Source: Candidatus Poriferihabitaceae bacterium (GTDB taxonomy: Bacteria; Pseudomonadota; Gammaproteobacteria; Arenicellales; Poriferihabitantaceae). From it: 64,000 nucleotides of DNA. Below are positions 4,988 through 61,427 of this stretch, in pieces. Below the pieces are notes generated by a model. It was not told where the DNA came from, ran no database searches, and worked only from the letters and a program-made list of their open reading frames with translations. The first letter of the stretch is position 1, and each line of letters begins with the position of its first letter. Location of the stretch: contig CBDEGO010000004.1 of NCBI GenBank assembly GCA_965237995.1, positions 451,780 to 515,779 of the forward strand, read 5' to 3'. A program made the translations under genes and the position numbers.

Positions 4988-6457
4988 CTAGCTGATTGAA
5001 ACAGTCTGCTTTGCTCTCGCCTTGCTATACAGCGCGGGCCGCACAGAGGCATTCATTTCGCACATCGAAACCGCCTGCCATTGCCCATGTTGCTTTACAA
5101 CGCCTTTAAAGGCGCAGGCATCTAAACGCTGTTTTACCGTTGCGCTTTGAGGCTGTGCAATTTGCCCATCACTCATAAAGTTATGCATTACTAAGTTAAA
5201 CCCTTTAGCCTTACCTCTAAGTAAAGCGAACGCGAATGCCAAGCTAAGCTCTCGCTTATAAGCGAGTTCAGCCGCATACAAGACCGACCAAAGAACCACA
5301 CTCGGCCTTCGAATCAAGCCGCCAATTTTCTGCAACAATGAAATACTCGGTTTAGTGCTTTTTGCCCCTAAGCCGCCAAATGTATTCAAGGCACAAGCCC
5401 AAAAGCGTTGACCAATTTTGGTAGAACTACCTAAGTTGGCTACGGTAGCGCCTTTCGGCCAAGCCAAGATAGTGGCCACACTACTGCAATCTTTATGACC
5501 AAATAAAAGGTGACTGCGAGGCAACGTTAACCCTAAGGCGCTGGATAATGCAGCCCACGTTTTTTCTGGCGTCACCGGGCTAGAAGAAGCCAAAGTACGG
5601 CCTACCGCAGCTTCGGTTTGAAAACTGATGGTTCTGCACACATCCATGTTTTCTGGCTTTTGTCTGAGCCAAGATAGTATTTCGCCGACACTATCTATAT
5701 TTTTTTCGGTTACAGTAACCGTTTGCGCGACGACCACTAATTTGCCCGTTTGTTTACGCATCTTAAGTACAAGCTGTACAAACTCATCGCGAAGCGGATT
5801 GAGCTGCGCTTCATGCGTTAAAGATTTAATCGGGTAGCGAGCGCGCCCTGCCATGGTGGTATCGATATGGATACTTAGTTTTCTTAAACCACCAAGAACC
5901 ACTAAATCCTTGAAGAAACCTTGATGTTCAAGCAACCCTTGCCCATGCGTCATTAACATGGGCACTAATCCTTGCTCGTTGGCATAGCGTATCACTTCGA
6001 GTAGCTCGTTTGGCTTACCCGCCCGAAAATACGCATCGACCACATCACCCCCGGTAATTTGAATATTACCACCCACTCCCATTAATCGCCGCTGTGCGTC
6101 TATTTGTTCTTTCATTTGCGCTAGCGGCACAAGCGCTTGATGATTGGCGCCTTTGGGCAAGTAACAATGGCTACAACCAAAAGAACAATAAGATGGCCCC
6201 ATGGTGTACCCACATTGCACCCAGTGCTTACCGACTATCTGATTAGGTTGTTGTAAATCCGCGGGTAACTGTTGCCAACGCTGGTTTAACAATTGCCGTT
6301 TATCACTTGGTAACGGATTCCATAGTGCTTGCCAGTATGGCTTTATTTTCTCTCGAATTCGCTGCCAGCACCCCTGAATTCCTGTCACACAATCACCCAC
6401 CGAACTTAGCCATTCAGTTTGCGTTTTAGAACGAGTTTTTACAATACGTATATTCAT
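4988..6457 (-). CDS. Radical SAM protein, subfamily unassigned
   Basis: 489 aa. It carries the canonical CxxxCxxC cluster motif CSFGCSHCY and a glycine-rich ITGGD segment. The long C-terminal half ends in a Cys-containing tail, CAFKG...SMCEMN. Confidence 0.7.
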   Translation of the reverse strand: MNIRIVKTRSKTQTEWLSSVGDCVTGIQGCWQRIREKIKPYWQALWNPLPSDKRQLLNQRWQQLPADLQQPNQIVGKHWVQCGYTMGPSYCSFGCSHCYLPKGANHQALVPLAQMKEQIDAQRRLMGVGGNIQITGGDVVDAYFRAGKPNELLEVIRYANEQGLVPMLMTHGQGLLEHQGFFKDLVVLGGLRKLSIHIDTTMAGRARYPIKSLTHEAQLNPLRDEFVQLVLKMRKQTGKLVVVAQTVTVTEKNIDSVGEILSWLRQKPENMDVCRTISFQTEAAVGRTLASSSPVTPEKTWAALSSALGLTLPRSHLLFGHKDCSSVATILAWPKGATVANLGSSTKIGQRFWACALNTFGGLGAKSTKPSISLLQKIGGLIRRPSVVLWSVLYAAELAYKRELSLAFAFALLRGKAKGFNLVMHNFMSDGQIAQPQSATVKQRLDACAFKGVVKQHGQWQAVSMCEMNASVRPALYSKARAKQTVSIS

Positions 6458-6481
6458 GATAACTAGGCAGATTTTCCCTCA

Positions 6482-7300
6482 ATGATTCTTGATCAGTTTT
6501 TGAAAGCCTTAAAAACCAGCGCACTTATTTTAGGCTTATTGCTTATCTTCGCGCTTCCTAGTGTCTTTGCCGCAGAAGATAGCGCAGACCTGATTTGGGC
6601 GCAAACACTCGAACAGTACGTAAATGACAAGGGTTTTGTCGATTATGACAGCCTCAGCAAAAACCGAACTGAATTTGATCAATATATTCTAAAACTGCAA
6701 ACCACAGGCCCAACCACCACCCCCGAAAACTATGGCAGCGCTCATTCACAGCTAGCGTATTACATCAATGCTTATAATGCGATGGTGTTTAAAGGCGTGC
6801 TAGACCGAGGACCTGAAAAAGAGAGCGTTTGGAAGGGTTGGATTTCTGGCCTAAACTTCTTTGTTCGCATGGACATTGTCGTTGACGGCAAGAAAACCAA
6901 TTTAAAAAAACTAGAAGACAAAGTGGTTCGCGCGCAGTTTAAAGACCCGCGCATTCATGCCGCTTTAAACTGCGCATCGGTTAGTTGCCCTCGGCTGATT
7001 CAAGAACCGTATGTTGCCGAAAAGCTTGACCAACAACTTGACGATGCAATGCACGAATTCCTTAATAGCGATATGCATGTGTTGGTAAATGCTGAGAAAC
7101 AAACCGTTGGTTTATCGAAAATACTCGATTGGTACGATTCTGATTTTACCGCCTACGAAGCCCAACAAGGTAATACCGCAGGTAGCAAAAATAGCCGCCT
7201 ATTGAATTTCGTGAATCGCTACCGCGATAAGGCGTCGCAAATTCCGATCGACTATAAAGTGCGATTACTTAAGTACGACAAAGGCATCAATGCGCAGTAA
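6482..7300 (+). CDS. DUF547 domain-containing exported protein
   Basis: Signal peptide ...LIFALPSVFAAED. The motif HAALNCASVSCPRL is what I recall as the DUF547 hallmark. Confidence 0.65.
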   Translation: MILDQFLKALKTSALILGLLLIFALPSVFAAEDSADLIWAQTLEQYVNDKGFVDYDSLSKNRTEFDQYILKLQTTGPTTTPENYGSAHSQLAYYINAYNAMVFKGVLDRGPEKESVWKGWISGLNFFVRMDIVVDGKKTNLKKLEDKVVRAQFKDPRIHAALNCASVSCPRLIQEPYVAEKLDQQLDDAMHEFLNSDMHVLVNAEKQTVGLSKILDWYDSDFTAYEAQQGNTAGSKNSRLLNFVNRYRDKASQIPIDYKVRLLKYDKGINAQ

Positions 7301-7324
7301 ACTAAATTCGGAAGTTAAGACAAA

Positions 7325-7657
7325 TTACAACTGCGCGATGGTTATTGCGTATTTAGCTGCACACGCAAACAAGACCACTAGGACTATTGGCTTGGCTTTA
7401 AGTAATACCGAAGGAACACGCGCAGAGCACAACAAATAAGCTGCCGTAATGATCATTACCACCCCTGACACTAAAGCCGCCAAGCCCCAAAACTCGGTTA
7501 AATGTTGCAAGCCATACCATAGCGCATTCCACAGGCCCGCCGCGAGTAGCACCCACCCCACTATAGCACTTAACCAATTCGGCAGCTTGCTCTGCAATAA
7601 AGCCGTAACCAGACCTGCGATCATGCAAGCCGTGACAATTGTTCCCATTGGAAGCAT
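7325..7657 (-). CDS. Small integral membrane protein (hypothetical)
   Basis: 110 aa with four hydrophobic segments. Two overlapping alternative-frame ORFs were rejected in its favour. Confidence 0.45.
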   Translation of the reverse strand: MLPMGTIVTACMIAGLVTALLQSKLPNWLSAIVGWVLLAAGLWNALWYGLQHLTEFWGLAALVSGVVMIITAAYLLCSARVPSVLLKAKPIVLVVLFACAAKYAITIAQL

Positions 7658-7758
7658 ATCAAACCCTCATTAGTAATTCGCCTCGATATTAAGTGACTCC
7701 CTATTCTTAGGCAAGCATCAAGCTTGTCGCTGGGCCTTGTCTGAGCGAGAATAGCGCC

Positions 7759-8796
7759 ATGCAAACATCAAAAATAATTCATACGGTTAGTTGTCATGCT
7801 GAAGGTGAAGTGGGCGACGTTATTGTCGGCGGCGTTCAAACTCCGCCCGGCGACACCATTTGGGAACAATCTCGATGGATTGCCGAAAATCAAAGCCTGC
7901 GTAATTTTATGCTGAACGAACCGCGTGGCGGGGTATTTCGACATATTAATTTACTGGTGCCACCTAAACACCCTGACGCTGATATGGGTTGGATTATCAT
8001 GGAACCGGAAGATACGCCCCCTATGTCGGGTTCTAACTCAATTTGCGTAGCCACTGTCATGTTAGAGACGGGTATTGTGCCCATGGTGGAGCCCATAACG
8101 GAACTGACGTTAGAAGCCCCCGGCGGGCTCGTAAAGATATCAGCACACTGCGAAGGTGGCAAAGTACGGTCAGTTAAAACCTATAATCATGCTTCTTTTG
8201 TTACCGCACTGGACCAAACGCTTGAGGTAGAAGGCATTGGCTCGATACAAGTCGATATTGCATACGGTGGAGACAGCTTCGTTATTGTTGATGCACAAAG
8301 CCTGGACTTCACTTTAACAATGGACGAAGGTCGGTCTATCGCAGAAGTGGGTACTTGGATAACCCAAGCGGCCAATCAGCAGCTGGGCTTTAGCCACCCA
8401 AGCAATACTGATTGGAATCACATCTCGTTTTGCCAACTGACTCTACCGATCACCGAAGAAGGTGGCGTTAAGTCGGGTAAGAATGCAGTCGTAGTTCAAC
8501 CGGGAAAGATAGACCGGTCCCCTACTGGGACAGGCTGCTCCGCGCGCTTGGCGTTATTGCACGCCAAAGGCGAAATAAAAGTGGGTGAGCCGTTTATTGG
8601 GCGTTCAATTATCGATTCGCGCTTTGATTGCAAAATTGAAGCTCTCACCACGGTTGGCGACCTGCCTGCAGTATTACCTTCCTTGCAAGGTCGTGCGTGG
8701 ATTACAGGCACGCATCAACATATGCTCTGCCCTACCGACCCTTGGCCTGAGGGTTACAAGATTTCAGATACTTGGCCAGAGAAACTGATCGTATAG
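7759..8796 (+). CDS. Proline racemase / hydroxyproline epimerase-dehydratase family protein (non-canonical catalytic pair)
   Basis: The N-terminus [24 protein letters not shown] and DRSPTGTG are family hallmarks. PMSGSNS has Ser where the first catalytic Cys sits. [11 protein letters not shown] has Thr where the second Cys sits. Confidence 0.8.
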
Positions 8797-10032: not shown

Positions 10033-11379
10033 TTACCCCTTCGCTTCAGCGCGCTTTTGATATTTACGTTTTTTGCGCCATAGTCGCAATTTAATCAACG
10101 GCACCATCGCTTTAGAAGTGAGTATTTTGGCGATGCTATAACGCAGCCATTGGTGTTGACCTGTCCACAAAAACATCGACACTAAGCGCTCCATCAGTTT
10201 TTCCTTGGCTGATGCTTCTGGTGTTTGTCTGTCATACGTAGGCACGGCGATGCCTTTGGCTTGCCACCGAGCTAAGCGCAATGGCGCAGTTAAGCCTTTA
10301 CGTTGAGTGCGCATTTTATGGGTTTTATAAGCTGGGTCTTCACTCACGTCTTGTAGCGTTAAAGCCCCTCTTTGCAGGGCCTTTTCTACAATTTGTTGGC
10401 CGCGTTCACTGCGCACCAAGGTTCGAGATTGTGAGTTAAACTTATATTTCCCGTCCTCGTTACGCGTCCACGCATCGCCCACGGCGATATCGGCAAATAG
10501 GTTAGAGCCGTCATAACAAACTTGGCAGCGTTTAGGCAAATAAATACCAATGAGATAATTGTAGGCGCCATCTTTATAGTTGGAGTAATGTACCGCTTGG
10601 GGTGGCTTATCCTTAAAAATTGCGCGCATTTGACCAGGCCACTCACCACCGCGAAATTCAAAATCGGTGATGCTTGATACAGGAATATTCTTGGTTTTAA
10701 GTAATTCAGGCACCACCATCGGCTCGAGCGCACCGCCGCAGTAGGTACCAAAGATAGCGACGATGCGTTCTTGTAGAACTGGGTCGATACTCAAGGCTTC
10801 GCGCAGACCGTGATTATGACAAGGCAAACCCACTACCGCGTATTTCCCCGGCGTATCGCGTATTTCTTGCAACAAGGTGTTGAGCGGAATAATGGTGTAG
10901 CGTGAACCCTGACTAGCAATGATCTCTTGTTTGCTTCGCGCGATAAATGGTTCACCCATCCACGGTTTGTCGGCGCGCATTCGGGTGACCACGCAGCCAT
11001 CTATTTCTCCGTTTTCAAGCATATCAACCGCTAATGCAGAAATAATACCCCCCCCAGTGGCACGAACTCTTAGCGCGTCATCATTAGCATGTCCGATATA
11101 AATATTGGCTGTGTATCCGTCGAAGCTACCGTCGTCATCTTTAGAAAATGTTTGCTGGCTCAGTTTGTTGAAATTGACTTTACCACCCGGGCACACTTCA
11201 CCGCATTTGCCACACGCAGTGCAGGCATCTAGGTCTAAAACGGGGTAATAGTTTTCGTCTAGGGAAATGGCTTTTTCGGGGCAAACCCCTACGCATGTCC
11301 CGCTGCGTGCGCACAGTGATTGGTCGGTAAAACCGATCGAGAGCTTTGCCTTAAGATCAGGGCTAATATTGGTTTGCAC
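10033..11379 (-). CDS. FrhB-like (coenzyme F420 hydrogenase/dehydrogenase beta subunit family) Fe-S flavoprotein
   Basis: N-terminal ferredoxin-type motifs CARSGTCVGVCP and CTACGKCGEVCP are followed by an FrhB-like domain of about 350 aa. It is the last gene of the glycan operon. Confidence 0.65.
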   Translation of the reverse strand: MQTNISPDLKAKLSIGFTDQSLCARSGTCVGVCPEKAISLDENYYPVLDLDACTACGKCGEVCPGGKVNFNKLSQQTFSKDDDGSFDGYTANIYIGHANDDALRVRATGGGIISALAVDMLENGEIDGCVVTRMRADKPWMGEPFIARSKQEIIASQGSRYTIIPLNTLLQEIRDTPGKYAVVGLPCHNHGLREALSIDPVLQERIVAIFGTYCGGALEPMVVPELLKTKNIPVSSITDFEFRGGEWPGQMRAIFKDKPPQAVHYSNYKDGAYNYLIGIYLPKRCQVCYDGSNLFADIAVGDAWTRNEDGKYKFNSQSRTLVRSERGQQIVEKALQRGALTLQDVSEDPAYKTHKMRTQRKGLTAPLRLARWQAKGIAVPTYDRQTPEASAKEKLMERLVSMFLWTGQHQWLRYSIAKILTSKAMVPLIKLRLWRKKRKYQKRAEAKG

Positions 11380-11382
11380 AGG

Positions 11383-13251
11383 CTAACTGACCTTGGCTAT
11401 ATCGAGCAAGCCATATAAAACAAACGACACGGTAGCAAGAGTGAAAAGCAACAGCATAAGAGCGCTAAGCAGGCGCTTATTTAAAACTGATTGAAGCCAA
11501 ACCAGTGTCACACCAAATATGGGCGCCATTGCAAAGTAATAACGACCTTGAGGTTGAAAGTCTACCGTCCAAGACTTGTAGATGGTGATGAGGATTAAAC
11601 CGATAAATAAAGCTAGATTAAGTGCTAATACGCTACGCTGAAATCCGTTACCGCGCACCATAACCTGCCAGATGAGGCTCAGCACCAATAGAGCAAGTAT
11701 TAGCTTGACGAACAAATAATGTAGCTGTGTCGCAGGTAATTCAACGTAGCCATAATTGCCAAAAGCAGATTTAAAAACCGCATTTACCCAGCCGTAGCTA
11801 AGCATGGTTGGAATTGAGATATCTCGCTTATCGAGGCTTAAAGACCAGTTTTGGTCTTCTATCGGCGTACTGGGTTTATAGGCCGTATCGGCAGTTTGTT
11901 CTCGACAGTCAATGACCTTGTCACGGCGGGTAAAATCGTTGACAACGTTTTGACTGAAATGCCAAGTAGAGTAGCCAATTAAGCCAAGCAGGATAATTAC
12001 ACCTAATGATTTAGCCGGCTGTATAAGGTTTTGCCAGTGTTTACGAGATGGCAATGCAAGCAAGGCAGCGCTGGCAAAAAGAAATAAGGTAAAGAAATAA
12101 AAATTCTTCTTCGTTAAAAACAAGAACGTCGCTAAAAATCCTAGCCCAATTAAAGGCAGGATGACTTTATCTACTTTGCCGCTCAGTAATTTTCTGAAAC
12201 TGCTATTTTCACTAATCACTTGGTTACCAATAACAAATGCCGCCAGTAAAGCAGAAGCATCTGAATTGAAATAGCTAAACAAATACCACAATTGCGGGGA
12301 AAGCAACATGGGGGTTAGCAGCAAGCGCGCTTGCGGGTTACGCACCGCTAACAGCAGTAGCAAGGCGAACAAGAGTACGTTGAAAAAACGCAACTTGACG
12401 TATGTTTTAACGGGTATGAAGTCGACTAATTGTAAATAACGTCCAGCGACATAGTACGTTAACTCATCGGCGTTAAGTCGCGAAGTGCCGTATACCGTAT
12501 ACGATGGCAAGGTGTCTTTGGTGCAGACTTGCGGCAAGCTTAGGTTGTTTTCAAAATACTGCGCCGCCGCGATATGCGCGTGCTCATCCGGGTGAGCGTG
12601 CGGTCGGCTGATAATTGCCATAATGGTGATTAACACCAACACTAAGCCCATTGCGTAGGGCACAAAGCTAAAACTGGTTGGAATCAACGGATAAGTTCGC
12701 AACAACAATAGACCAATCGCGACCATAACCGCTAACCTAAACAGATGCGTTAGCCAGCTGTCTGGTTCAGGCTCTAAATTCAAGTCATAGGTAAAATTTG
12801 AATCATGGTCGGTGGCGTAATACACCAAGCCTTCCTGATCGAACTCTAGCAACGCGACTTGATTACGCGCCTTTAAATTCTTGAGCTCTTCTTTGTGTAT
12901 GCGTATCGTTTTATATCCCGCTTGATAGATGTTGATCGCCTTGATACGGAATAGTCCGCGGATGTTGGTCGGGTCGATACGCAAGTGGTCGATATCGCGT
13001 AAGTCGGTGAGTACGGTCGAGTAGGTGTTTCGAGGGCGCGTAAGTTTGATCAAACTCGACTTATTATCGTCGTAAGTTTCGTCCTTATCATGCGCCCAAT
13101 AAATGCGAAAGTTAGTGCTGTGCCCGACATCGATGTCGATCGTCACAAACGCACGGGTGGTCATATACCAATACAAACCCAATGAAACCGTGCAAATCAG
13201 CGCGAATAGTAAAACTTGTGCGCGCGAAAAATCCGACAAGCGTGGCAGCAT
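11383..13251 (-). CDS. Polytopic membrane protein, GT-C/DUF2142-like putative glycosyltransferase
   Basis: 622 aa. One TM segment and a domain of about 150 aa precede more than 10 TM segments. The loop motif HPDEHAHIAAAQYF (PDExxH type) is shared with the ORF at 61669-63465. Confidence 0.5.
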   Translation of the reverse strand: MLPRLSDFSRAQVLLFALICTVSLGLYWYMTTRAFVTIDIDVGHSTNFRIYWAHDKDETYDDNKSSLIKLTRPRNTYSTVLTDLRDIDHLRIDPTNIRGLFRIKAINIYQAGYKTIRIHKEELKNLKARNQVALLEFDQEGLVYYATDHDSNFTYDLNLEPEPDSWLTHLFRLAVMVAIGLLLLRTYPLIPTSFSFVPYAMGLVLVLITIMAIISRPHAHPDEHAHIAAAQYFENNLSLPQVCTKDTLPSYTVYGTSRLNADELTYYVAGRYLQLVDFIPVKTYVKLRFFNVLLFALLLLLAVRNPQARLLLTPMLLSPQLWYLFSYFNSDASALLAAFVIGNQVISENSSFRKLLSGKVDKVILPLIGLGFLATFLFLTKKNFYFFTLFLFASAALLALPSRKHWQNLIQPAKSLGVIILLGLIGYSTWHFSQNVVNDFTRRDKVIDCREQTADTAYKPSTPIEDQNWSLSLDKRDISIPTMLSYGWVNAVFKSAFGNYGYVELPATQLHYLFVKLILALLVLSLIWQVMVRGNGFQRSVLALNLALFIGLILITIYKSWTVDFQPQGRYYFAMAPIFGVTLVWLQSVLNKRLLSALMLLLFTLATVSFVLYGLLDIAKVS

Positions 13252-13253
13252 GC

Positions 13254-13994
13254 TTACTTACGCATCCGAATAACTTTTGCAGGGGTGCCCACCGCGATGG
13301 CATATTCTGGGATATCTTCTGTCACTACCGAACCAGCGCCGATGATTGCACCTGCGCCGATGTTGGTGCCATCATTGACGATCACATGTGCGCCAAGCCA
13401 AACATCGTCGCCAAAGGTGACACCGCCTTTAGAAACCATTTCCTGTTCGGTGATGGGCGTGTCAGTATCTTCAAAGCCGTGGCTTAAGCCGCCAATGTAG
13501 CAACGTCCACCAAATAGGCAATGCTCACCAATGGTTATTTGACTAGAAGTGCCAATGTGGCAATCAGGGCCAATATTACTGCCTGTCCCGATACTGATTG
13601 AACCCCCACGAGTGCGCAGTCGCACGTTTTGCCCAACCAACGATTTATCGTGAATGCGTATTTCGTCGTCACCTTCACCGCGCGCGGAAATTTGCACGTA
13701 ATCATCAATCACACAAGCGGAACCAATAACAACTCGGGCTGGGTTGCGTAAACCAATGTGATGCCCAAAAATAGTCTTTTTACCAACCGACTTGAATAAA
13801 CTAGGGAACAAGACTTTGCGCAGCGCTAAGCCTAATGCGCCTTGAATAGGAGAAATAAACGTGGTGCAAAACTCGTACATAATCAGCGAAAGCACCCTGC
13901 GATTACCGACTTGCAAGTCTTGGTATTTCTTGAAAAAACCGCGATCATCATCTTCCATGATTTTGGAAAATCGGTGGTGTTCGTTGCGGCTCAT
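13254..13994 (-). CDS. Hexapeptide-repeat (LbH) acyl/acetyltransferase
   Basis: The C-terminal half consists of imperfect hexapeptide repeats ([25 protein letters not shown]...[27 protein letters not shown]). Confidence 0.75.
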
Positions 13995-14036
13995 TGCGGT
14001 CTATCGGCTCTGGAAGAGAGGCCAATTATAATAGAA

Positions 14037-15020
14037 TCAGTCTTTGCTGTGGCTAGCAGTTTCAGGCGTGGCGCGCAGTCGCGCGAGATGCACTAAACCG
14101 CCAATAATAGCATTGACAATGGTTTTGAACCGCATCAACAACGCCGTGGCTAAAGCGAGTTCGGGGCTATAGCCAAATAAGATGAATATCGTTGTGTAGG
14201 CGGCTTCCATCACGCCTAAGCCACCGATCGAGACTGGCAGATTCATGATCAACATAATCGCTGGCACCGCGAGCAGCATATCAGTGAAGCGTACACCAGA
14301 GTCAAAGGCTTGCGCGCTAACCCATACGTTAATGACCGCCAACATATAAAACAGGCTAGAAATGCTTACTACGAAGAACAAGGTTTTCTTATCGTTTTTG
14401 TATTCAAAAACTGCTTGGTGAACCAACGATAGCTTTGAGAATATGTTGCCGATGGACGAATGAATCGGACTAAGTAAGTTAGAGACAAAATTAAACACTC
14501 TGACATCTAACACCAACCAAAGCAAAAACAACACCAAGCCAATAACAAATAACAAGCTATTGGTAATGAGTGGGATAGGGTCAGGGTGGGCGATTAATAC
14601 AATGCCAGAAACAGCCGCTAACACCACCATACCGATAAAACGCTCCATGAAAACCGAAGCAAAAGCTTCGTAATTTTCGCCAGTGTGCCGTCCTAAGTCC
14701 CATATTCGGGCCACATCACCACCCATACTGGTGGGCATAAACATGTTGAAAAAACGACCGATATAGTAAAAGCCTAGAAGACGCCAAAGCCCAACCGCAA
14801 TCTGCTTAGACTTAAGTAATATTTGCCAGCGCCAAGAACTGGTGACGTTTAACATCACGCTGATGATTAACGACAAAGCAAAGTAAATTGGGTTGACGTT
14901 TTTTAGCGTTTCTTTAAATCTACCTAAACCTTCAGTGGTATCTAGGCCTGTTTTATGAATAACGTACGCAATTAATCCAAAGCTTATGGCAACCTTCAAA
15001 ATGAAAAACAGCTTCTTCAT
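14037..15020 (-). CDS. UPF0104 / LPG-synthase-TM-like 'flippase-like' membrane protein
   Basis: 327 aa with about 8 TM segments. The N-terminus MKKLFFILKVAISFGLIAYVIHKTGLD and the overall layout are typical of this family. Confidence 0.6.
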   Translation of the reverse strand: MKKLFFILKVAISFGLIAYVIHKTGLDTTEGLGRFKETLKNVNPIYFALSLIISVMLNVTSSWRWQILLKSKQIAVGLWRLLGFYYIGRFFNMFMPTSMGGDVARIWDLGRHTGENYEAFASVFMERFIGMVVLAAVSGIVLIAHPDPIPLITNSLLFVIGLVLFLLWLVLDVRVFNFVSNLLSPIHSSIGNIFSKLSLVHQAVFEYKNDKKTLFFVVSISSLFYMLAVINVWVSAQAFDSGVRFTDMLLAVPAIMLIMNLPVSIGGLGVMEAAYTTIFILFGYSPELALATALLMRFKTIVNAIIGGLVHLARLRATPETASHSKD

Positions 15021-15035
15021 TACAACAATGTGCAG

Positions 15036-16217
15036 TTAGCTCAAATAAGGCTTTAAGAAGGTAGCGGTAAGTTTTGCTTTGCGCTTTTCGTCTTCTGCAA
15101 CCGGCGCCATTTGCGCTGCAACTTCTTTGCGCACTTCCCATAGTTTCTTGATTTGGTTTGCTAAGGAATCCGCGGTTAGATCAGCAAACGGAACCTGCCA
15201 ATCAACCATGCCAACGGTGCGTAAAAAACCGGTGCTTTTAGGGTAAGAAGTTAAGCCTATCATCGGTACGTTAGTCGCTGCGCTGAAAATTAACGGATGG
15301 GTACGCAAGCCGTTGTGCAATTCAAGCCGCTTAATAATGCCGGTAATGACTTCGAAGTTGTATTTAAGGCCTTCATTGCCAAAGATTTTAACGCGTGCTT
15401 TATTGCGCATTTTGGCGATGGTTTGCTCAGTCACAGGCTTGTCCATAATTTGCGTCACGATAAAAATAATATCAACGTCTAACTCGTCGATGACCTTATC
15501 TGCCGCTCCGGCAATATCGCTGCAAAAATCTTCTTGGCTATAGGTGCCGTCCATGCTCCAGTTATCAATGTAAGCATTTACGTTAAAACCGATGGTGCCC
15601 TTGGGGTTGGTAAATAAGCCCTCTTCCTTAATGATTTTGTCCATCACTTCATCTGAAGGGACTTCGGTGTTCATCGCGCAATCGGCGTGAATGGTCAGCT
15701 TAGGATAAGTAACGCCAATATTATCGAAAATCTCTTTAGTGGCTTCATCACGCGTCACAATCTCAACGGTCGCATCCAATACCTTCTGCAACGCCTTCTT
15801 ACCATACGGAAAGTCAATTGGGCCAACAGACACATTGTAAAGGAAAATTGGCACGCCTTTCTTTTTAGCGAAAGGGGCGAACAGTGCGATGGAAGACAGG
15901 TTGTTGAATAGCGGGTTATAAAACTTACGATCAAACAAAATGTTATCGCAAATTAAAATTAAATCGGTATCAGTCATGGCTTTATACATCGGCCAGCCTA
16001 GATTTCGGATGCTAAAATTCCAAGGCATCATCGGCACCGCTTTTACATTCAGGTGTCCATATTCCTGTTCGATATATTTTGCGTTAGTGGTGGGTACATA
16101 AAATTCGAGGTCATCGTAAATGTCAGTGATGTCCCGCAACATATTGCCCAAGATAGCCATATCACCCGCATTGCGGCCCGAATTGTTGCCTAATATCGTT
16201 ACTCTTTTCATTGCCAA
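15036..16217 (-). CDS. Polysaccharide pyruvyl transferase family protein
   Basis: 393 aa. The N-terminal ILGNNSGRNAGDMAILG segment resembles the G-N-x-G-D motif of WcaK/CsaB-type pyruvyl transferases. Confidence 0.65.
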   Translation of the reverse strand: MAMKRVTILGNNSGRNAGDMAILGNMLRDITDIYDDLEFYVPTTNAKYIEQEYGHLNVKAVPMMPWNFSIRNLGWPMYKAMTDTDLILICDNILFDRKFYNPLFNNLSSIALFAPFAKKKGVPIFLYNVSVGPIDFPYGKKALQKVLDATVEIVTRDEATKEIFDNIGVTYPKLTIHADCAMNTEVPSDEVMDKIIKEEGLFTNPKGTIGFNVNAYIDNWSMDGTYSQEDFCSDIAGAADKVIDELDVDIIFIVTQIMDKPVTEQTIAKMRNKARVKIFGNEGLKYNFEVITGIIKRLELHNGLRTHPLIFSAATNVPMIGLTSYPKSTGFLRTVGMVDWQVPFADLTADSLANQIKKLWEVRKEVAAQMAPVAEDEKRKAKLTATFLKPYLS

Positions 16218-16233
16218 TTGTTTGCCTTAAGGG

Positions 16234-17250
16234 TTAGCTAATTAAACCTTGTTCTTTGTACCATTTGGCCGTTTCAGCCAAGCCTGATTCATTATCATGA
16301 ATGAATTCGTAGTCTAACAAGTTCCGTACTTTGGAATTATCGAATTGACGATCTTTTGTGTAAAACCCAACACGGCGCCGATAAATCGGGGGTTGAATGC
16401 CTAAGGGAGTGCAGATGGCTTTGGAAATATCGGCCGCTAGGAAAAATGGCCAAATAGGCAAGCGAATGGTGCGCGGTGTTTTACCGATTGCACGACCAAT
16501 AGACTTGCCCATTTCTATGATTGAAATAGGCTCATCAGCAGCTGCGATAAACACTTCAGACGCCGCTTTGTCGGAGGTCGCAGCAAGCATGAATACGTTC
16601 ACCAAATCCTCGACATGCACTAAGTGATACATACCTTTGCCACCACCTAACATTAGGGTAAAGCCGCGATCAGCCATCTTGAAGAACTTGAGTAAGCGCC
16701 CGTCGCCCGGCCCATAAATCGGCGTGGGCCGCACAATACTATAAGGGAATTGATGCTCAGCAGCATATTCAGCCAGCCATTGCTCGCCTTCTAGCTTGGT
16801 GCGTTGGTATCCATCTCCCGGTGCAAAGCGGTATTCTTCGTCAGCGCGGTCGATTTCAATATGACCATGCACGCCGACGGTAGATACATGCAAAAAGCGC
16901 TTAAACCCTTCGCGGCCAGTAAGATGTTTGGCTAAAATTTGCGTGCTGTAAACGTGGACTTTTCGGTAGTCTTCGTCGGTGGCTTTTTCTTCATTAAAAG
17001 CCGCAGCGACATGGAAAACATAGCTTACGCCTTCAGCAGCTTCAATCAGTACTTTTTCGTCAAAAACTTCGCCGCGTATCCAGGTTATATCGAGATCATT
17101 TAAGCCACTTATATTGGACGATTCACGCGCCACGCAGCGCAAATTAGCCCCTGCACCAGCGAGTTGTCGACACAGCGTTTGGCCCGTGAAGCCAGTTGCA
17201 CCGGTCACTAAGATGGTTTCGCCTTTAAATTTTTGAAGCACGTCTTGCAC
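16234..17250 (-). CDS. NAD-dependent epimerase/dehydratase (extended SDR)
   Basis: Rossmann motif VTGATGFTG at the N-terminus. The catalytic motif YxxxK appears as YQRTK. 338 aa. Confidence 0.85.
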   Translation of the reverse strand: MQDVLQKFKGETILVTGATGFTGQTLCRQLAGAGANLRCVARESSNISGLNDLDITWIRGEVFDEKVLIEAAEGVSYVFHVAAAFNEEKATDEDYRKVHVYSTQILAKHLTGREGFKRFLHVSTVGVHGHIEIDRADEEYRFAPGDGYQRTKLEGEQWLAEYAAEHQFPYSIVRPTPIYGPGDGRLLKFFKMADRGFTLMLGGGKGMYHLVHVEDLVNVFMLAATSDKAASEVFIAAADEPISIIEMGKSIGRAIGKTPRTIRLPIWPFFLAADISKAICTPLGIQPPIYRRRVGFYTKDRQFDNSKVRNLLDYEFIHDNESGLAETAKWYKEQGLIS

Positions 17251-18292: not shown

Positions 18293-18892
18293 TTGATCTA
18301 CCCAGACTTCAGCGGTTTAGTTTTTGACCATACTCAACACCCTTCAATTGAATACCCGGAAGGTGATGTGTGGTTATTTGGCTATGGTTCACTGATGTGG
18401 CGACCCGAATTCGACTATTTAGAATCGGTGTCAGCGCGTCTATATGGCTATCATCGCGCATTTTGTTTATGGTCTATCGAATATCGCGGCGACGTGACTC
18501 AGCCGGGTTTGGTGCTGGGCTTAGACACAGGAGGGTCTTGTGCAGGCCGCGCATTTAAGATTTGTGCTTCAAAAATTGAGCAAATCATTCCCCTGTTGAA
18601 TCGCCGCGAAATGATAACTGGCGCGTATCGCTCCATCACAAAGCCATTGTACTTAGACAATGGTAACTGCGTGAAGGGCGTATCATTAGTGGCAAGGCAT
18701 GGCCACCCTCAATATGTTACACCGCCGCTCACTGCAGACCAAACAGTCGAGATAGTTTTAAAGGCCAATGGCAAAATGGGGCCTAATATTGATTACGTTC
18801 GCAATACCATTACCCACCTACGAGACTTAGGCATTCGAGATGCAGGGATGGAGCGCCTAGCTACAATTTTGCCAACAGAAGATAATGGATAG
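18293..18892 (+). CDS. chaC: ChaC family gamma-glutamylcyclotransferase
   Basis: The hallmark motif WLFGYGSLMWRP is present. 199 aa. The start is a TTG, so the start call is uncertain. Confidence 0.8.
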   Translation: MIYPDFSGLVFDHTQHPSIEYPEGDVWLFGYGSLMWRPEFDYLESVSARLYGYHRAFCLWSIEYRGDVTQPGLVLGLDTGGSCAGRAFKICASKIEQIIPLLNRREMITGAYRSITKPLYLDNGNCVKGVSLVARHGHPQYVTPPLTADQTVEIVLKANGKMGPNIDYVRNTITHLRDLGIRDAGMERLATILPTEDNG

Positions 18893-19931
18893 CCTAAGTC
18901 AAATAGCGCTCGGTAGTTCAGTCGCCTATCTTGTAGGGGGGAGACAAGCACCACGGTTATCACTATTAGCAGGGGCTGTCGTTGGCACCCTACCCGACTT
19001 GGATATCATCGTACAATACGCCGATCCATTGACCAGCACGATCGCGCATCGTACTTGGTCACATTCATGGTTAGCACAAACCGCTGTATCACCATTGCTC
19101 GCTTATGCAGCGAGTATTTACCTCCCAACGCTAAGTTTCAAACGGTGGTGGTTGCTTATTTGGCTGTGCTTAATTACCCACAGTTTACTTGACTGTTTTA
19201 CCATTTACGGCACAGGTGTCTTTTGGCCATTTTCTAGTCAAACAATCATGTGGGGTTCGATATTTATCATCGACCCAGCCTACACTTTGCCCTTGCTAAT
19301 AGGCGTGATAGTGGCTTGGCGGAATCAAACGAATCGCTCTGCTACTCTATGGGTGATGGGCGGCTTGCTAGCAAGCTCGATGTACTTAGCTTGGGGGCTG
19401 TTCGCTCAACAGATGATCAGTGAACGCATGCGCGCGCAACTTGACAAACAAGCAATTTTATCCACTCGCTTTTTTGTCACTCCTACCCCATTTAATTCGT
19501 TACTGTGGCGTGTCGTTGCGATCGACGAGCAGCACTACTACGAAGGGGTCGCTTCTGTGTTTGACGCCGACCCCTCAATTTCTCTCGATCCTTTCCCTAG
19601 GGCACTGCAATCGGTAGATGGATTGGAAAAACTTGAAAAGTTTACTGAATATCAACGATTCACTCATGGCTTTTATGCGCTGGAGAACCAACAAGGTGCA
19701 TTGGTTGTGAAGGATTTGCGCATGGGAATCACTCCATTTTTAATGTTTCAGTTTGAATTTGCACAGGCAATAAGTGGGCGCGCTATTGCTGTGCCTCCGT
19801 CTGTTGCATCGCCCAAGCTCGTTCCGCTATCCGAACTGAAAAAGGCATTTGCTTATATATTGAAACGAGTGTTTAACCAAGCAGAACAAATGCCCGCACT
19901 TCAATTGCCTCCTACGAACAATGCTTCTTGA
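18885..19931 (+). CDS. Membrane-bound metal-dependent hydrolase (YdjM/YbcI, DUF457-like)
   Basis: The N-terminus MDSLSQIALGSSVAYL, His-rich TM loops (HRTWSHSW, THSLLD) and an 8-nt overlap with chaC support the call. Confidence 0.6.
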   Translation: MDSLSQIALGSSVAYLVGGRQAPRLSLLAGAVVGTLPDLDIIVQYADPLTSTIAHRTWSHSWLAQTAVSPLLAYAASIYLPTLSFKRWWLLIWLCLITHSLLDCFTIYGTGVFWPFSSQTIMWGSIFIIDPAYTLPLLIGVIVAWRNQTNRSATLWVMGGLLASSMYLAWGLFAQQMISERMRAQLDKQAILSTRFFVTPTPFNSLLWRVVAIDEQHYYEGVASVFDADPSISLDPFPRALQSVDGLEKLEKFTEYQRFTHGFYALENQQGALVVKDLRMGITPFLMFQFEFAQAISGRAIAVPPSVASPKLVPLSELKKAFAYILKRVFNQAEQMPALQLPPTNNAS

Positions 19932-55926: not shown

Positions 55927-58379
<2,453 letters not shown>

Positions 58380-58418: not shown

Positions 58419-59363
58419 ATGAATGCCTCGCCATTAGTCAGCATTGTAATGCCTGCTTACAACCACGAAAAATTCGTTGGTGAAGCGATTGACAGCGTAT
58501 TGAACCAAACTTGGCAACATTTAGAGCTCATCATTATTGACGATGGCTCAACCGATAAAACTGCCGATATTGTAAAGGCTTATGACGATCCACGGGTACA
58601 CTATTTTTATCAAGATAACCAAGATGCCTACAACGCGCTTAATGCCGGTTTAGAAAAAACTAACGGCGGCTTTATCGGTATTATCAATTCTGACGACGTA
58701 TTTCATACTTCGCGCATAGAGACCTTACTCGCGCTAATGAGCGAACATAACGCACAAGCTATTTTCTCTGATGTATCACCGATAGACGCTGAAAGCGCTC
58801 CCCTGAGTGATCCGGAATTTGGCTGGAATAACTGGCACCACGCTAATCGGCGTTTTTATGCACGTCACGACCGAGATATTTACCAAGGTTTTTTGCACGG
58901 GAATTTAATGGTCACCACATCAAACTTACTGATGAGCGCTGCGGCTAAAGACACCATCGGCGGCTTTGCCCCCTATCGTTACCTACACGACTACGACTAC
59001 CTATTTCGCTTGCTCAATGCGTTCCCAGAGCAAGTTCACTATGCGGAAGAGGCAGTATTATTAAATTATCGAATTCACGGTAACAATACCATTAGCGAAG
59101 CGGCTATTACTGGGCGCGAGCAAGATCAAGAAATTATTCGCAATGCTGTGTTGGCGCAATTACCCGCTGCAACCCACGCACGAGCTAATGTCGGTATCGA
59201 CCGCTTAATCACACTTGAACTCGAACTTATGGAGGTGCGCAAGCAACTCAATCCACAGGTGGAAAACGCGCCTAAAGGCAAGTTAACAGATGACACGCCC
59301 ACCCGTGATTTAGCGGCGCTAATTGTAAAACGACTGCTTTCGAAAATAGGCCTGCGTCGCTAG
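58419..59363 (+). CDS. Family 2 glycosyltransferase
   Basis: VSIVMPAYNHEKFVGEAIDSVLNQT...LIIIDDGSTD and a DxD-type segment, NSDDV. Confidence 0.85.
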   Translation: MNASPLVSIVMPAYNHEKFVGEAIDSVLNQTWQHLELIIIDDGSTDKTADIVKAYDDPRVHYFYQDNQDAYNALNAGLEKTNGGFIGIINSDDVFHTSRIETLLALMSEHNAQAIFSDVSPIDAESAPLSDPEFGWNNWHHANRRFYARHDRDIYQGFLHGNLMVTTSNLLMSAAAKDTIGGFAPYRYLHDYDYLFRLLNAFPEQVHYAEEAVLLNYRIHGNNTISEAAITGREQDQEIIRNAVLAQLPAATHARANVGIDRLITLELELMEVRKQLNPQVENAPKGKLTDDTPTRDLAALIVKRLLSKIGLRR

Positions 59364-59378
59364 GACAGTTTAAGAACC

Positions 59379-61427
59379 ATGCAGAGTTATTACGATTGGC
59401 AAAGCCTTATTAAGCAGGCAAACCAGCAGCTAGATCAGTTTGACGTCATTAGTTTTGATGTGTTTGACACGCTGTTTATTCGCAGAGTGCCCGACCCGAA
59501 CATGATCAAAATTCCAGTGGCACAAATGATTAGCAATGCAGCTAATCAACTCGGGATTCATATTACACCCCGTGAAGTGCGTCAATTACGAAACAAAATC
59601 GAACAACAGCATCGCGATCGCAACGGTCAGTCGCACCCCGACTTTGAAGCGCGGTACGACGATTTCATGCAAGAAGTGCTTGAGCATGTTTTTGGTTCTG
59701 CTTTGCCATCAACGCTATTTAAACAAGTAGCCCAATTCGAAACCGACATGGAAAGCAGTATGATCGTGGTGCGCCAAGAAGCACTCGAGTGGATCAAACA
59801 GCTGCATAACAAAGGCAAACGACTGCTGCTCATTTCTGACATTTATCTAGGCGCAAAATATATTCAAGCTATCGCAACAAACAAAGGCATATTCGATTAT
59901 TTTGAAGCGATTATTTCTTCGGCTGACACCTTTAAGGCCAAAGCCTCAGGAGCAGCTTGGCCGATGATAGAACAGCAGTATAGTTTACCTAAAGATAAAT
60001 GGCTACATATCGGAGACAATGCGCACTCTGATTACAATAAGCCGATTGAATTTGGCATTCAAGCGTTGCACTTGCGTGACATCGGCGAGCATCATCGCCT
60101 ATCTCTAGCTACGCGCTACAACTATTACGCTTCGCAACGCGATTTCTGGAAAGGCCGGAACCAGCTGCAATGGATGTTGCCATTAGAGCATGAAAATAAA
60201 GATAAGCCCCCCTTGTATACGGATGGCTTTGGATTCTTTGGATACCTCATTAGCTTTTTTATTCACCGCCTAATGGAGCGCTGCAAAGACGAAGACATTG
60301 AACGCGTTTACTTTTGCGCTCGCGAAGGTTGGCTGTTCAAACAAGTATGGGATGCGATGACACCTTGGTTCTTCCCACTAGGTAACGCTCCAAAAGCCAG
60401 CTATCTTTACATTAGCCGAATGGGTGTGGCGTCCGCCGCTTGCGCGCATCAGGGGCTTTCCCCGCTGAACGCCCATGTGGCGCGATTCCCAGCAGGAAAT
60501 CGAGATTTTAAGGATATTTGCCGAATATTTAAATTAGACGCTGAAACTCTAGCTCCGCATTTAGCAAAGTATGATCTAAAAACAGATGACCCAATTGGCT
60601 TTAATTCTGCCGACTACGATCAATCAGCCGATGAGAAGTTTGCGCATGTCTTGGATGATGAAGCCTTTCAATCTGCGGTAAAACAACAAACAAATGCAGA
60701 CAACCAAGCGTTTCAACTTTATTTAGAAAGCGAAGATTTTTTCGAGCAAGACAAAGTCGCCTTGGTAGACATCGGCTGGTTAGGCACCATTCAGCATTAT
60801 CTTTCTGACGCCATAGAACCGCGCAAAGACAAGCCCCGTATTTTTGGGTTCACCCTCGGCGCCATTCGCGCAACGCCTTATCGCAATGATTTCAATAATA
60901 GCTTAGAAGGCTTGGTTTACGACGCTCATCGTTTAAGCTTTTATACGTCGATGACGAACACCATCAAACCTGTTCTAGAAGAAATTTGTCGTGCGCCTCA
61001 CCCAACTTTAGTGGCATACAAGATTGTAGGCGGCAAGCCAAAACTAGAGTTTCGCGATACCAGCGACGCGGTAGGCCAAGGGGAAATTAAACAAAGCGAG
61101 TACTATAAACCCCTGCATGAAGGCATTATCGCCTGTGCAAAACGGTATGCGCCTGCAACGCAAATATACAACTATAATACAGGCGAATTGAAGGCGTGGT
61201 TAAACTTTATGTATTTGGCAAAAGTGGCTTTCCCTAAAACTCAAGAAATTCAACGTGTGCGGCATGAAGCCCATCAAGACGATTTCTCAGGTCAACATCA
61301 ACCGGCTAAAAAGGCTGTTAAACAAGACCAAACTTTATGGACAATGAGTCACAGCAAGCTTAAATTTAACCCATTCACGCGGGTATTGTGGTTCATTGAT
61401 AATGCCTATCGTTTCCTAAAAGCATGA
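59379..61427 (+). CDS. Large HAD-superfamily (COG5610-like) hydrolase-domain protein
   Basis: HAD motifs I (ISFDVFDTLFIRR), II (LLLISDIY) and III/IV (K...HIGDNAHSDY) lie in the first 230 aa or so. An uncharacterised C-terminal region of about 450 aa follows. Confidence 0.6.
   Translation: MQSYYDWQSLIKQANQQLDQFDVISFDVFDTLFIRRVPDPNMIKIPVAQMISNAANQLGIHITPREVRQLRNKIEQQHRDRNGQSHPDFEARYDDFMQEVLEHVFGSALPSTLFKQVAQFETDMESSMIVVRQEALEWIKQLHNKGKRLLLISDIYLGAKYIQAIATNKGIFDYFEAIISSADTFKAKASGAAWPMIEQQYSLPKDKWLHIGDNAHSDYNKPIEFGIQALHLRDIGEHHRLSLATRYNYYASQRDFWKGRNQLQWMLPLEHENKDKPPLYTDGFGFFGYLISFFIHRLMERCKDEDIERVYFCAREGWLFKQVWDAMTPWFFPLGNAPKASYLYISRMGVASAACAHQGLSPLNAHVARFPAGNRDFKDICRIFKLDAETLAPHLAKYDLKTDDPIGFNSADYDQSADEKFAHVLDDEAFQSAVKQQTNADNQAFQLYLESEDFFEQDKVALVDIGWLGTIQHYLSDAIEPRKDKPRIFGFTLGAIRATPYRNDFNNSLEGLVYDAHRLSFYTSMTNTIKPVLEEICRAPHPTLVAYKIVGGKPKLEFRDTSDAVGQGEIKQSEYYKPLHEGIIACAKRYAPATQIYNYNTGELKAWLNFMYLAKVAFPKTQEIQRVRHEAHQDDFSGQHQPAKKAVKQDQTLWTMSHSKLKFNPFTRVLWFIDNAYRFLKA

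Follow-up and report, generated by a model that had tools for sequence, protein, structure and literature searches.

Gene content of the operon

The window analysed here is a stretch of 64,000 nucleotides from the genome of a Candidatus Poriferihabitaceae bacterium. At positions 10033-17250 it carries an operon (locus A) of six co-directional open reading frames (ORFs) on the minus strand, with intergenic gaps of 16, 15, 42, 2 and 3 nt. The genes are listed below from the 5' end of the operon.

16234-17250, minus strand: extended SDR of the NAD-dependent epimerase/dehydratase family, 338 aa (PF01370, 2.9e-33)
15036-16217, minus strand: PS_pyruv_trans-family, phosphoenolpyruvate (PEP)-dependent pyruvyl transferase (PyrT), 393 aa (PF04230, 61.8 bits)
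14037-15020, minus strand: stand-alone LPG_synthase_TM (UPF0104, MprF flippase-domain-like) polytopic protein, candidate flippase, 327 aa (PF03706, 6.7e-47, and TIGR00374)
13254-13994, minus strand: left-handed beta-helix (LbH) O-acetyltransferase, WbbJ/WcaF-like, 246 aa (PF00132, 1e-13)
11383-13251, minus strand: MP622, putative GT-C-fold glycosyltransferase of a DUF2142-like family, 622 aa (predicted structure)
10033-11379, minus strand: FrhB-like Fe-S flavoprotein, 448 aa (PF04432, 2.6e-30; PF04422, 8.3e-22)

Three of the genes start with GTG or TTG codons, and the exact start positions are uncertain. A sequence-only reading of this DNA had described six minus-strand genes 2-42 nt apart with these domains, and both the ORF list and the domain searches bear this out. 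The SDR, PyrT, LbH acetyltransferase and FrhB-like protein are soluble enzymes with no predicted transmembrane (TM) segment, while the flippase-like protein and MP622 are polytopic. GC content shows no anomaly. The flanks of the operon belong to unrelated metabolism and include genes for a radical SAM enzyme, DUF547, proline-racemase-family, enolase-superfamily, ChaC, YdjM, PAP2/haloperoxidase-like and RibH proteins, among others. Promoter and terminator scans were uninformative, since shuffled sequence held more promoter-like sites and at least as many terminator-like ones. The same reading had reported that a phosphoglycosyl transferase, Wzx, Wzy, Wza/Wzc and an ABC exporter are missing; in the annotated parts of the window (~3-33 kb and 48.6-64 kb) we too find no phosphoglycosyl transferase, Wzx, Wzy, Wza/Wzc or polysaccharide ABC exporter. 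No polyprenyl-phosphate sugar synthase is encoded in the operon or in the window. Loci fetched for comparison are numbered L001 onwards; their ORFs come from a simple in-house caller, which may miss or mis-size genes in GC-rich contigs.

Predicted functions of the operon proteins

MP622 has no Pfam match at E<=0.01, and no solved structure is detectable by sequence. Sixty homologues were found, mostly unnamed, and five of the 60 carry a precomputed match to PF09913 (DUF2142). An alignment of 47 homologues reveals a set of invariant residues, among them the P221-D222-E223-x2-H226 loop after TM3 and the residues Q566, Q568, G569 and R570. The AlphaFold (AF2) model, with a pLDDT of 89.8 and a pTM of 0.87, is laid out as TM1, a beta-sandwich at about residues 33-160 and a multi-helix membrane body. 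The best Foldseek matches of the model are the GT-C enzymes EmbB/EmbA, ArnT, Pmt4, ALG9/12/6 and Pmt1/2, with a probability of ~1 and EmbB at the top, and the beta-sandwich resembles a carbohydrate-binding module (CBM; entry 2xhh). By the positive-inside rule, the beta-sandwich and the PDE..H loop are predicted to face the periplasm. The model predicts MP622 to be a GT-C-fold glycosyltransferase of an uncharacterised family with a periplasmic catalytic loop. Its earlier label, a GT-C/DUF2142-like protein with a PDExxH loop, agrees with the fold, with the invariance of the motif and with the PF09913 matches. Several contigs carry the MP622 homologue in two parts, a ~190-aa protein and a ~446-aa membrane body; judged from its length, the smaller piece corresponds roughly to the N-terminal TM1 and beta-sandwich. 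In L019 (10394-13568), L040/L041 and L071 the two parts are separated by a flippase-like gene that runs on the opposite strand. The short contig L027 shows the N-terminal piece alone.

In the flippase-like protein, PF03706 spans residues 7-307 of 327, and the score against TIGR00374 ('flippase-like') is above the cut-off. PF03706 is the flippase domain of MprF, a glycerophospholipid flippase. MprF-like lipid aminoacylation is ruled out, since the C-terminal synthase domain is absent. No gene of the operon matches the GtrA, SMR or MATE families, which leaves the PF03706/TIGR00374 protein as the sole flippase candidate there. Stand-alone UPF0104 proteins of this kind are very common and have no assigned function.

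PyrT scores well above the PF04230 cut-off of 25.3 bits, covers profile positions 1-277 of 280 and is the only PF04230 gene in the whole genome. It does not qualify as an orthologue of the characterised members CsaB and WcaK, with 71 vs 213 bits for the CsaB model TIGR03609 and 28 and 20 vs 399 and 727 for the WcaK models, and no sequence match to any solved structure can be detected. Because it has no TM segment, PyrT is predicted to be cytoplasmic. Family membership, lack of TM segments and predicted location are all shared with the ketal pyruvyl transferases CsaB, WcfO, WcaK and Pvg1p (PMC6801904), and the characterised enzymes CsaB and WcfO are cytoplasmic and modify lipid-linked saccharides prior to export (PMC6801904). 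PyrT differs from these enzymes in lying far below the CsaB and WcaK equivalog cut-offs and in its link, seen in both phyletic distribution and gene order, with an FrhB-like flavoprotein.

The GxxGxxG and YxxxK motifs of the SDR are intact, as TGATGFTG and YQRTK, and the protein is a candidate sugar epimerase or oxidoreductase. Its gene adjoins that of PyrT in L002, L009, L023, L028, L040/L041 and L096, with one called ORF between them in L057. A hopanoid link through best matches to HpnA and HpnL was considered and orthology was ruled out, with 121 bits against a cut-off of 367 for HpnA and 44 against 196 for HpnL. The best NCBIfam matches of the LbH acetyltransferase are NF007240 (WbbJ) and NF007797 (WcaF), each under its cut-off.

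The FrhB-like protein comprises a 2x[4Fe-4S] domain, the FrhB N domain (PF04422, 77.6 bits), the FrhB C domain (PF04432, 105.7 bits) and a conserved basic C-terminal extension of ~100 aa. Orthologues from different phyla share at least 50% identity, along with invariant Cys residues and the motifs FRGGEWPG and SNYKDGAYNY. The best relatives in the PDB, 8riu_B (F420 reductase of carbon monoxide dehydrogenase, CODH), Fsr, FrhB and HCAR, are electron-transfer/flavin modules. The protein misses all NCBIfam equivalog cut-offs for FrhB and FpoF. CofE, the F420 ligase (PF01996), is absent from the genome, which is rated 100% complete, and was found in three archaeal control genomes. F420 is an unlikely substrate because the genome lacks CofE, and a role as subunit of an F420-dependent hydrogenase or dehydrogenase is ruled out by the lack of both CofE and hydrogenase partner genes. 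With the FrhB family (the F420-reducing hydrogenase beta subunit, Fsr, the CODH F420 reductase module 8riu and HCAR 5dqr) the protein shares the FrhB N/C domains, the ferredoxin-like 2x[4Fe-4S] domain and conserved Cys residues for an additional cluster. Unlike them, it is a stand-alone protein of 448 aa with a basic C-terminal extension in a genome without CofE, where it is surrounded by genes for glycans and lipid-linked sugars. When 400 other Pseudomonadota genomes were surveyed (401 including that of the window), only one weak FrhB relative turned up, and the family is sporadic in this phylum. In Candidatus Electrothrix marina, an FrhB homologue beside SDR and PyrT is in two ORFs (L009 16440-17761), and a second copy (G408:C38:21789-22772) has an in-frame TAA; both could reflect decay or assembly errors.

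Conservation of the gene set

L001 and L002, both from related Candidatus Poriferihabitaceae, have the exact six-gene set in identical order, with PyrT disrupted in L001. Five of the genes (PyrT, flippase-like, LbH, MP622 and FrhB) follow each other in the same order in the 5-Mb genome L013, where FrhB is 56% identical. In L001, which is the closest related genome, PyrT is reduced to its last ~112 codons and flanked by two DDE transposase genes (5396-8074); the other five operon genes are intact.

Searching metagenomes with an FrhB profile yielded 64 loci, and 40 FrhB-orthologue loci were left after dereplication. At least one other member of the set is present in 17 of the 40, and the flippase-like gene is the commonest neighbour of the FrhB orthologue (12/40). 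Among the 25 FrhB loci of at least 9 kb, the flippase-like gene is found in nine, PyrT in eight, SDR in seven, LbH in six, and MP622 and GT4 in five each. The set is a recurrent, loosely linked module in several phyla. An MP622 homologue is also encoded by the cultured strain Desulforhopalus singaporensis DSM 12130, which has a ribofuranosyltransferase-like gene at another place in its genome and no orthologue of FrhB or PyrT.

Partner loci elsewhere in the genome

In Desulfobulbaceae the MP622 homologue sits in a single ~20-kb cluster. This contains an AsnB-like amidotransferase, an SDR, an AT3 acyltransferase, a GT2, a 685-aa HAD-domain protein, two flippase-like genes (one fused to PD40), a GT2 with two C-terminal TM helices (the GtrB/ArnC architecture) and further GT2s. 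Orthologues of these partners are present in our genome, dispersed in locus B, 41 kb downstream of the operon in the same window from position 58419 on, and in locus C on another contig (C2).

58419-59363, plus strand: locus B soluble GT2 (PF00535, 2.8e-33), with 53% identity to the L006 GT2 that directly precedes the MP622 homologue
59379-61427, plus strand: locus B HAD-domain protein, phosphoribosyl pyrophosphate (PRPP)-type ribofuranosyltransferase-like (gPRT and phosphatase), 682 aa
61669-63465, plus strand: locus B GTC598, distant MP622 paralogue and second GT-C-like protein, 598 aa
63471-64000, plus strand, running past the window end: locus B SAM methyltransferase, 239 aa in the full ORF (PF08241)
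L097:195-1367, just past the window end: GT4 with generic best matches
L097:1318-3003, past the window end: GlpD-like DAO+DAO_C flavoprotein, 141 bits vs an equivalog cut-off of 360
C2:323801-324781: locus C GtrB-like GT2 with two C-terminal TM segments
56841-58379, minus strand, divergent from the locus B GT2: P512, a 512-aa polytopic membrane protein with about ten hydrophobic segments

Orthologues of the locus B GT2 occupy the same position in L006-L010 and L012. The 59379-61427 protein has a Pfam HAD domain and is 41% identical to the 685-aa protein next to the MP622 homologue of L006. Its AF2 model (pLDDT 77, from nine sequences) matches 7shg in Foldseek with E 3e-23 and TM 0.51/0.57 over ~650 columns, and 8a0c/8a0m, the capsule multienzyme Bcs3 of Haemophilus influenzae type b, with E ~1e-17. 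The model thus suggests the two-domain fold of PRPP-dependent polysaccharide ribofuranosyltransferases, and such a fold would imply a ribofuranose-containing glycan in the organism. GTC598 aligns to the MP622 profile with an hhalign probability of 92 and E 6e-7, has the motifs PDxxxH and QxQGKY in common with it and gives a weak match to PF02366 (PMT). Homologues of GTC598 stand as the GT-C gene next to flippase-like and FrhB genes in L024 and L028. The GT4-methyltransferase-DAO trio is contiguous in L076 and L078, and GT4/DAO genes occur with FrhB, SDR and PyrT in L028 and L033.

The locus C GtrB-like GT2 is 58-60% identical to proteins in L006, L010 and L012 (Desulfobulbaceae) and in the FrhB loci L054 and L055. 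It is followed by a second GT2, and this order is the same as in the Desulfobulbaceae and L054/L055 clusters. In L006, L010 and L012 the flippase-like gene lies two genes before the GtrB-like GT2, with a gene for an LPG_synthase_TM-PD40 fusion between them (Pfam-confirmed in L006; ORFs of the same size in L010 and L012). L028 unites GTC598-like, flippase-like, FrhB, GlpD-like, GT4, SDR and PyrT genes, and similar merged clusters are found in L009, L023, L024, L033/34, L040/41, L057 and L068.

The operon is therefore not self-contained, because its partner orthologues, contiguous elsewhere, are dispersed here in loci B and C. Comparative genomics rules out a self-contained six-gene module. The sequence-only reading had seen a module that decorates an existing surface glycan or lipid; that the six genes suffice for this, without further glycosyltransferases, is not supported, as a GT2, a ribofuranosyltransferase-like protein, a GT4, GTC598 and the GtrB-like GT2 are encoded elsewhere in the genome. 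The larger system is still non-canonical, and no larger wzx/wzy or ABC-dependent cluster came to light. Wzx, Wzy, Wza/Wzc, an ABC exporter and a phosphoglycosyl transferase are all absent among the annotated neighbours in the clusters, where several ORFs have no family match or were left unscanned.

The GlpD-like flavoprotein recurs with the GT4 and methyltransferase of the system in L028, L033, L076, L078 and L012. Directly downstream of the two locus C GT2s is a 588-aa protein (C2:321024-322790, minus strand) in which, by eye, an N-terminal GT2 domain is apparently fused to a C-terminal Rossmann/SDR-like region. P512 has no Pfam or NCBIfam match and is ruled out as a relative of MP622, as it shows no similarity to the MP622 profile. 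An N-terminal stretch of P512 resembles, by eye, the first-loop motif of ArnT/GT39-type GT-C enzymes, so that P512 is possibly a third GT-C-like protein, as a candidate only. The window has a YdjM-domain gene 1.6 kb away from the operon (18885-19931, plus strand), and in L014/L015 another YdjM-domain gene (L014 7415-7972) is directly 5' of a gene for a 681-aa PMT_2-like GT-C protein, which overlaps the FrhB orthologue and is adjoined by lpxB and lpxI. The two YdjM-domain genes may be a coincidence or mark a recurrent partner.

Association of the FrhB-like protein with pyruvyl transferase

Of 12 genomes identified by way of MP622 or FrhB, four have orthologues of both FrhB and PyrT and the other eight have neither; in one of the four, the two genes are on different contigs. 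In a Verrucomicrobiota sample, PF04230 is present in 10 of 10 FrhB-positive vs 12 of 20 FrhB-negative genomes, and four FrhB paralogues directly adjoin a PF04230 gene. One-sided Fisher tests, calculated by hand, give ~0.002 for the 12-genome set and ~0.02 for Verrucomicrobiota, in samples that are small, phylogenetically clumped and not independent. SDR homologues (~35-39% identical, and maybe not orthologues) are present in Desulfobulbaceae clusters that lack FrhB. On this limited evidence, FrhB tracks the pyruvyl transferase rather than the SDR, and the association between the two proteins that had been noted from their adjacency holds phyletically.

The co-occurrence fits a MurB-like role of the FrhB-like protein as a lactyl-ether reductase. 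By analogy with MurA/MurB, a plausible scheme, already raised in the sequence-only reading, is that PyrT transfers a PEP-derived carboxyvinyl group and the flavoprotein then reduces the enolpyruvyl ether to a lactyl ether. The likeness would be one of logic: PF04230 does not have the MurA fold, FrhB does not have the MurB fold, and electrons for FrhB would come from Fe-S/ferredoxin whereas those for MurB come from NADPH. In literature searches that combined FrhB or F420 with pyruvyl transferases or carboxyethyl groups, no paper gave FrhB and PyrT a shared function.

In the Kiritimatiellota-like contigs L020 and L051, a UbiA-family gene is divergent from the FrhB orthologue (L020 7992-8915 and L051 8924-9841, both on the minus strand). 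One contig is from an assembly annotated as Kiritimatiellaeota and the other is a metagenome contig with shared gene order. The UbiA proteins score 345/315 bits with PRK08238, a HAD-UbiA model, and 169/172 with models of decaprenyl-phosphate phosphoribosyltransferases; the top scores are just under the cut-offs, and other UbiA subfamilies reach at most 54 bits. These matches would tie FrhB to lipid-linked pentofuranose chemistry in Kiritimatiellota-like genomes. The window genome has no close UbiA-type donor synthase, only one weak match over ~75/307 residues.

Proposed pathway and comparison with known systems

We propose that the operon supplies the tailoring, flipping and transfer steps in a system for periplasmic glycosylation of the Arn, Gtr or pentofuranose kind, a system split over three loci, and we put the probability of this reading at roughly 55%. 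It keeps the Arn/Gtr-like logic put forward in the sequence-only reading, with predicted cytoplasmic tailoring enzymes, a flippase-like membrane protein and a putative GT-C-fold enzyme with a periplasmic loop. In the pathway that we infer, a lipid-linked sugar would first be made on the cytoplasmic face, with the GtrB-like GT2 on contig C2 as the candidate enzyme; the GT4, GT2 and ribofuranosyltransferase-like protein of locus B would assemble or lengthen either this lipid-linked sugar or the glycan that accepts it. The SDR would alter the configuration of the sugar, and PyrT would add a three-carbon acid derived from PEP. The FrhB-like flavoprotein would then carry out a redox step on the pyruvylated product, most likely from enolpyruvyl ether to lactyl ether, and the hexapeptide transferase would O-acetylate the sugar. 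In the sixth step the MprF-type flippase-like protein would carry the decorated lipid-linked sugar across the inner membrane, and finally the beta-sandwich of MP622 would bind the acceptor glycan while the PDExxH loop transfers the sugar. Observed are the gene order, the domains, the predicted GT-C fold, the conservation and the co-occurrence of the parts; the substrates, the sequence of steps, the role of the flippase-like protein and the chemistry of FrhB are deduced from these.

A close parallel is the three-component pathway for pentofuranoses, in which a lipid-phosphate donor is made in the cytoplasm, may be epimerised there by an SDR, is flipped and is then used by a GT-C enzyme that carries a carbohydrate-binding domain (PMC11127046). 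In Citrobacter youngae O1/O2 it consists of PPPRS ORF15, a MATE flippase, the GT136 GT-C enzyme ORF12 with a CBM and the SDR epimerase ORF13 (PMC11127046). Common to both systems are a GT-C protein with an extra periplasmic domain of the CBM type, a GalE-like SDR in the cytoplasm, a membrane protein of its own that may serve for flipping, independence of Wzx/Wzy within the module and, in the wider window system, PRPP-type ribofuranose chemistry; in other genomes a phosphoribosyltransferase-like UbiA also lies beside the FrhB orthologue. The systems differ in that the beta-sandwich of MP622 is N-terminal (TM1-TM2) while the GT136 domain is C-terminal. The candidate flippase is LPG_synthase_TM, not MATE; the window genome has a soluble gPRT+HAD enzyme and an unlinked GtrB-like GT2 in place of such a UbiA; and PyrT, the acetyltransferase and the FrhB-like flavoprotein are extra.

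With Arn (ArnA-T) and Gtr (GtrA/B/C) the system would share a GT2 with C-terminal TM helices that charges polyprenyl phosphate, a flip and transfer by a GT-C enzyme. Arn also tailors its sugar while lipid-linked (ArnD), and ArnT is among the best fold matches of MP622. In contrast to Arn and Gtr, there is no ArnE/F or GtrA homologue, the donor GT2 is on another contig, and the predicted tailoring chemistry involves a PEP-derived acid, an acetyl group and an Fe-S flavoprotein. No known flippase family of periplasmic glycosylation is matched here, and the candidate donor synthase is an unlinked gene. In the literature searched, no description of a PyrT, FrhB and LbH tailoring set on such a pathway was found.

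A bolder version of the proposal, which we regard as unlikely, is that the tailoring enzymes decorate the polyprenyl-phosphate-linked monosaccharide donor itself (e.g. with lactyl and acetyl groups) instead of the finished glycan, the UPF0104 protein flips it and the GT-C family delivers it.

Several observations weigh against the proposed pathway. The many glycosyltransferases in the merged clusters fit oligosaccharide assembly equally well as single-sugar decoration. The TM-scores of MP622 to solved GT-C structures are low, at 0.28-0.41. The GtrB-like GT2 is unlinked here, and its suggested tie to the system comes from synteny in other genomes only. No LPG_synthase_TM protein is known to flip polyprenyl-linked sugars, and MprF, the characterised relative, flips a glycerophospholipid. 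None of the other genes is present in 14 of the 25 FrhB loci of at least 9 kb. The redox step that we assign to FrhB faces, besides the small samples, the fact that FrhB most often adjoins the flippase-like gene and genes for large polytopic proteins, the destruction of PyrT by two DDE transposases in L001, where FrhB is intact, and the contigs L020 and L051, where FrhB adjoins the UbiA gene instead of PyrT.

Alternative explanations

The main rival to the favoured reading is that an oligosaccharide is built on undecaprenyl diphosphate and is transferred or polymerised en bloc. A housekeeping WecA-type enzyme encoded elsewhere would prime its assembly by the GT4, GT2 and ribofuranosyltransferase-like enzymes, decoration would fall to PyrT, LbH and the methyltransferase, LPG_synthase_TM would replace Wzx, and MP622/GTC598 would be oligosaccharyltransferase-, ligase- or polymerase-like. 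This would account for the many glycosyltransferases in the merged clusters, which hold four to six each with no Wzx, Wzy or ABC exporter among the annotated genes. Some GT-C-fold enzymes (PglB, AglB, STT3) do transfer en bloc, and the characterised PF04230 enzymes use di- or oligosaccharides linked to undecaprenyl diphosphate (PMC6801904). We nevertheless judge it improbable. The GtrB-like GT2, whose two C-terminal TM helices are a hallmark of single-sugar polyprenyl-phosphate chemistry, is syntenic with flippase-like genes in at least four clusters and is kept in this genome. The best fold matches of MP622 are single-sugar transferases (Emb, ArnT, PMT, ALG), with no oligosaccharyltransferase among the best 50 matches listed, and a phosphoglycosyl transferase was seen in no cluster examined.

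A second explanation concerns the flavoprotein. The FrhB-like protein could be a DprE1-like oxidase which, with or without the SDR, epimerises or oxidises a polyprenyl-phosphate-linked sugar (e.g. ribofuranose) before the flip, while PyrT makes an ordinary ketal. We consider this doubtful, and keep it in play because of the frequent neighbours other than PyrT, the loss of PyrT in L001 and the UbiA genes of L020 and L051, which resemble decaprenyl-phosphate phosphoribosyltransferases. DprE1/E2 and SDR epimerases are known to diversify lipid-linked pentofuranoses (PMC11127046). The SDR gene directly adjoins FrhB, with no PyrT, in L033, L034, L063 and L067, a ribofuranosyltransferase-like gene is part of the system, and EmbB is the top fold match of MP622. 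Against an oxidase stand the tracking of FrhB with PyrT and not with the SDR, whose homologues, maybe not orthologues, occur where FrhB is missing, the adjacency of FrhB paralogues to PF04230 genes, and the lack of a close phosphoribosyltransferase-like UbiA in the window genome. The FrhB-family enzymes with known substrates other than F420, HCAR and BciB, are also reductases.

Very unlikely is a third explanation, by which the GT4 glycosylates diacylglycerol or a phospholipid head group and the product is pyruvylated, acetylated, flipped in the MprF manner and extended by the GT-C enzyme to a lipoglycan, as in mycobacterial phosphatidylinositol mannosides, lipomannan and lipoarabinomannan (PIM/LM/LAM): the match to the flippase domain of MprF, the recurrence of a GlpD-like glycerol-3-phosphate dehydrogenase homologue with the GT4 and the Emb proteins as best fold match agree with it, but the GlpD-like score is far under its equivalog cut-off, the GT4 matches are generic, no lipid-anchor enzyme or PatA-type acyltransferase was seen, and the flippase-like genes sit close to the GtrB-like GT2 in L006, L010 and L012, which points to a polyprenyl carrier.

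Implications

The operon is less odd than it first seemed, because its partners exist, and it offers a setting for three unassigned protein families. It also holds a caution for genome mining: the operon looks self-contained, while its partners are 41 kb off and on another contig and are seen as such only through genomes in which they are contiguous. Surface antigens owe much of their diversity to glycosylation by GT-C enzymes in the periplasm, and the known versions of this process use few donor synthases and flippases. The system proposed here would add to them a DUF2142-like GT-C family with an N-terminal domain of the sugar-binding type, an MprF-like UPF0104 type of candidate flippase and an unusual set of donor-tailoring enzymes. 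If the donor itself is decorated, stand-alone UPF0104 proteins would gain a first function as polyprenyl-sugar flippases, the MP622 family of GT-C proteins would likewise gain its first function, and genes for lactyl-ether sugars would be at hand. The operon is a defined gene set, in a genome that lacks F420, for testing FrhB-like proteins as makers of lactyl-ether sugars.

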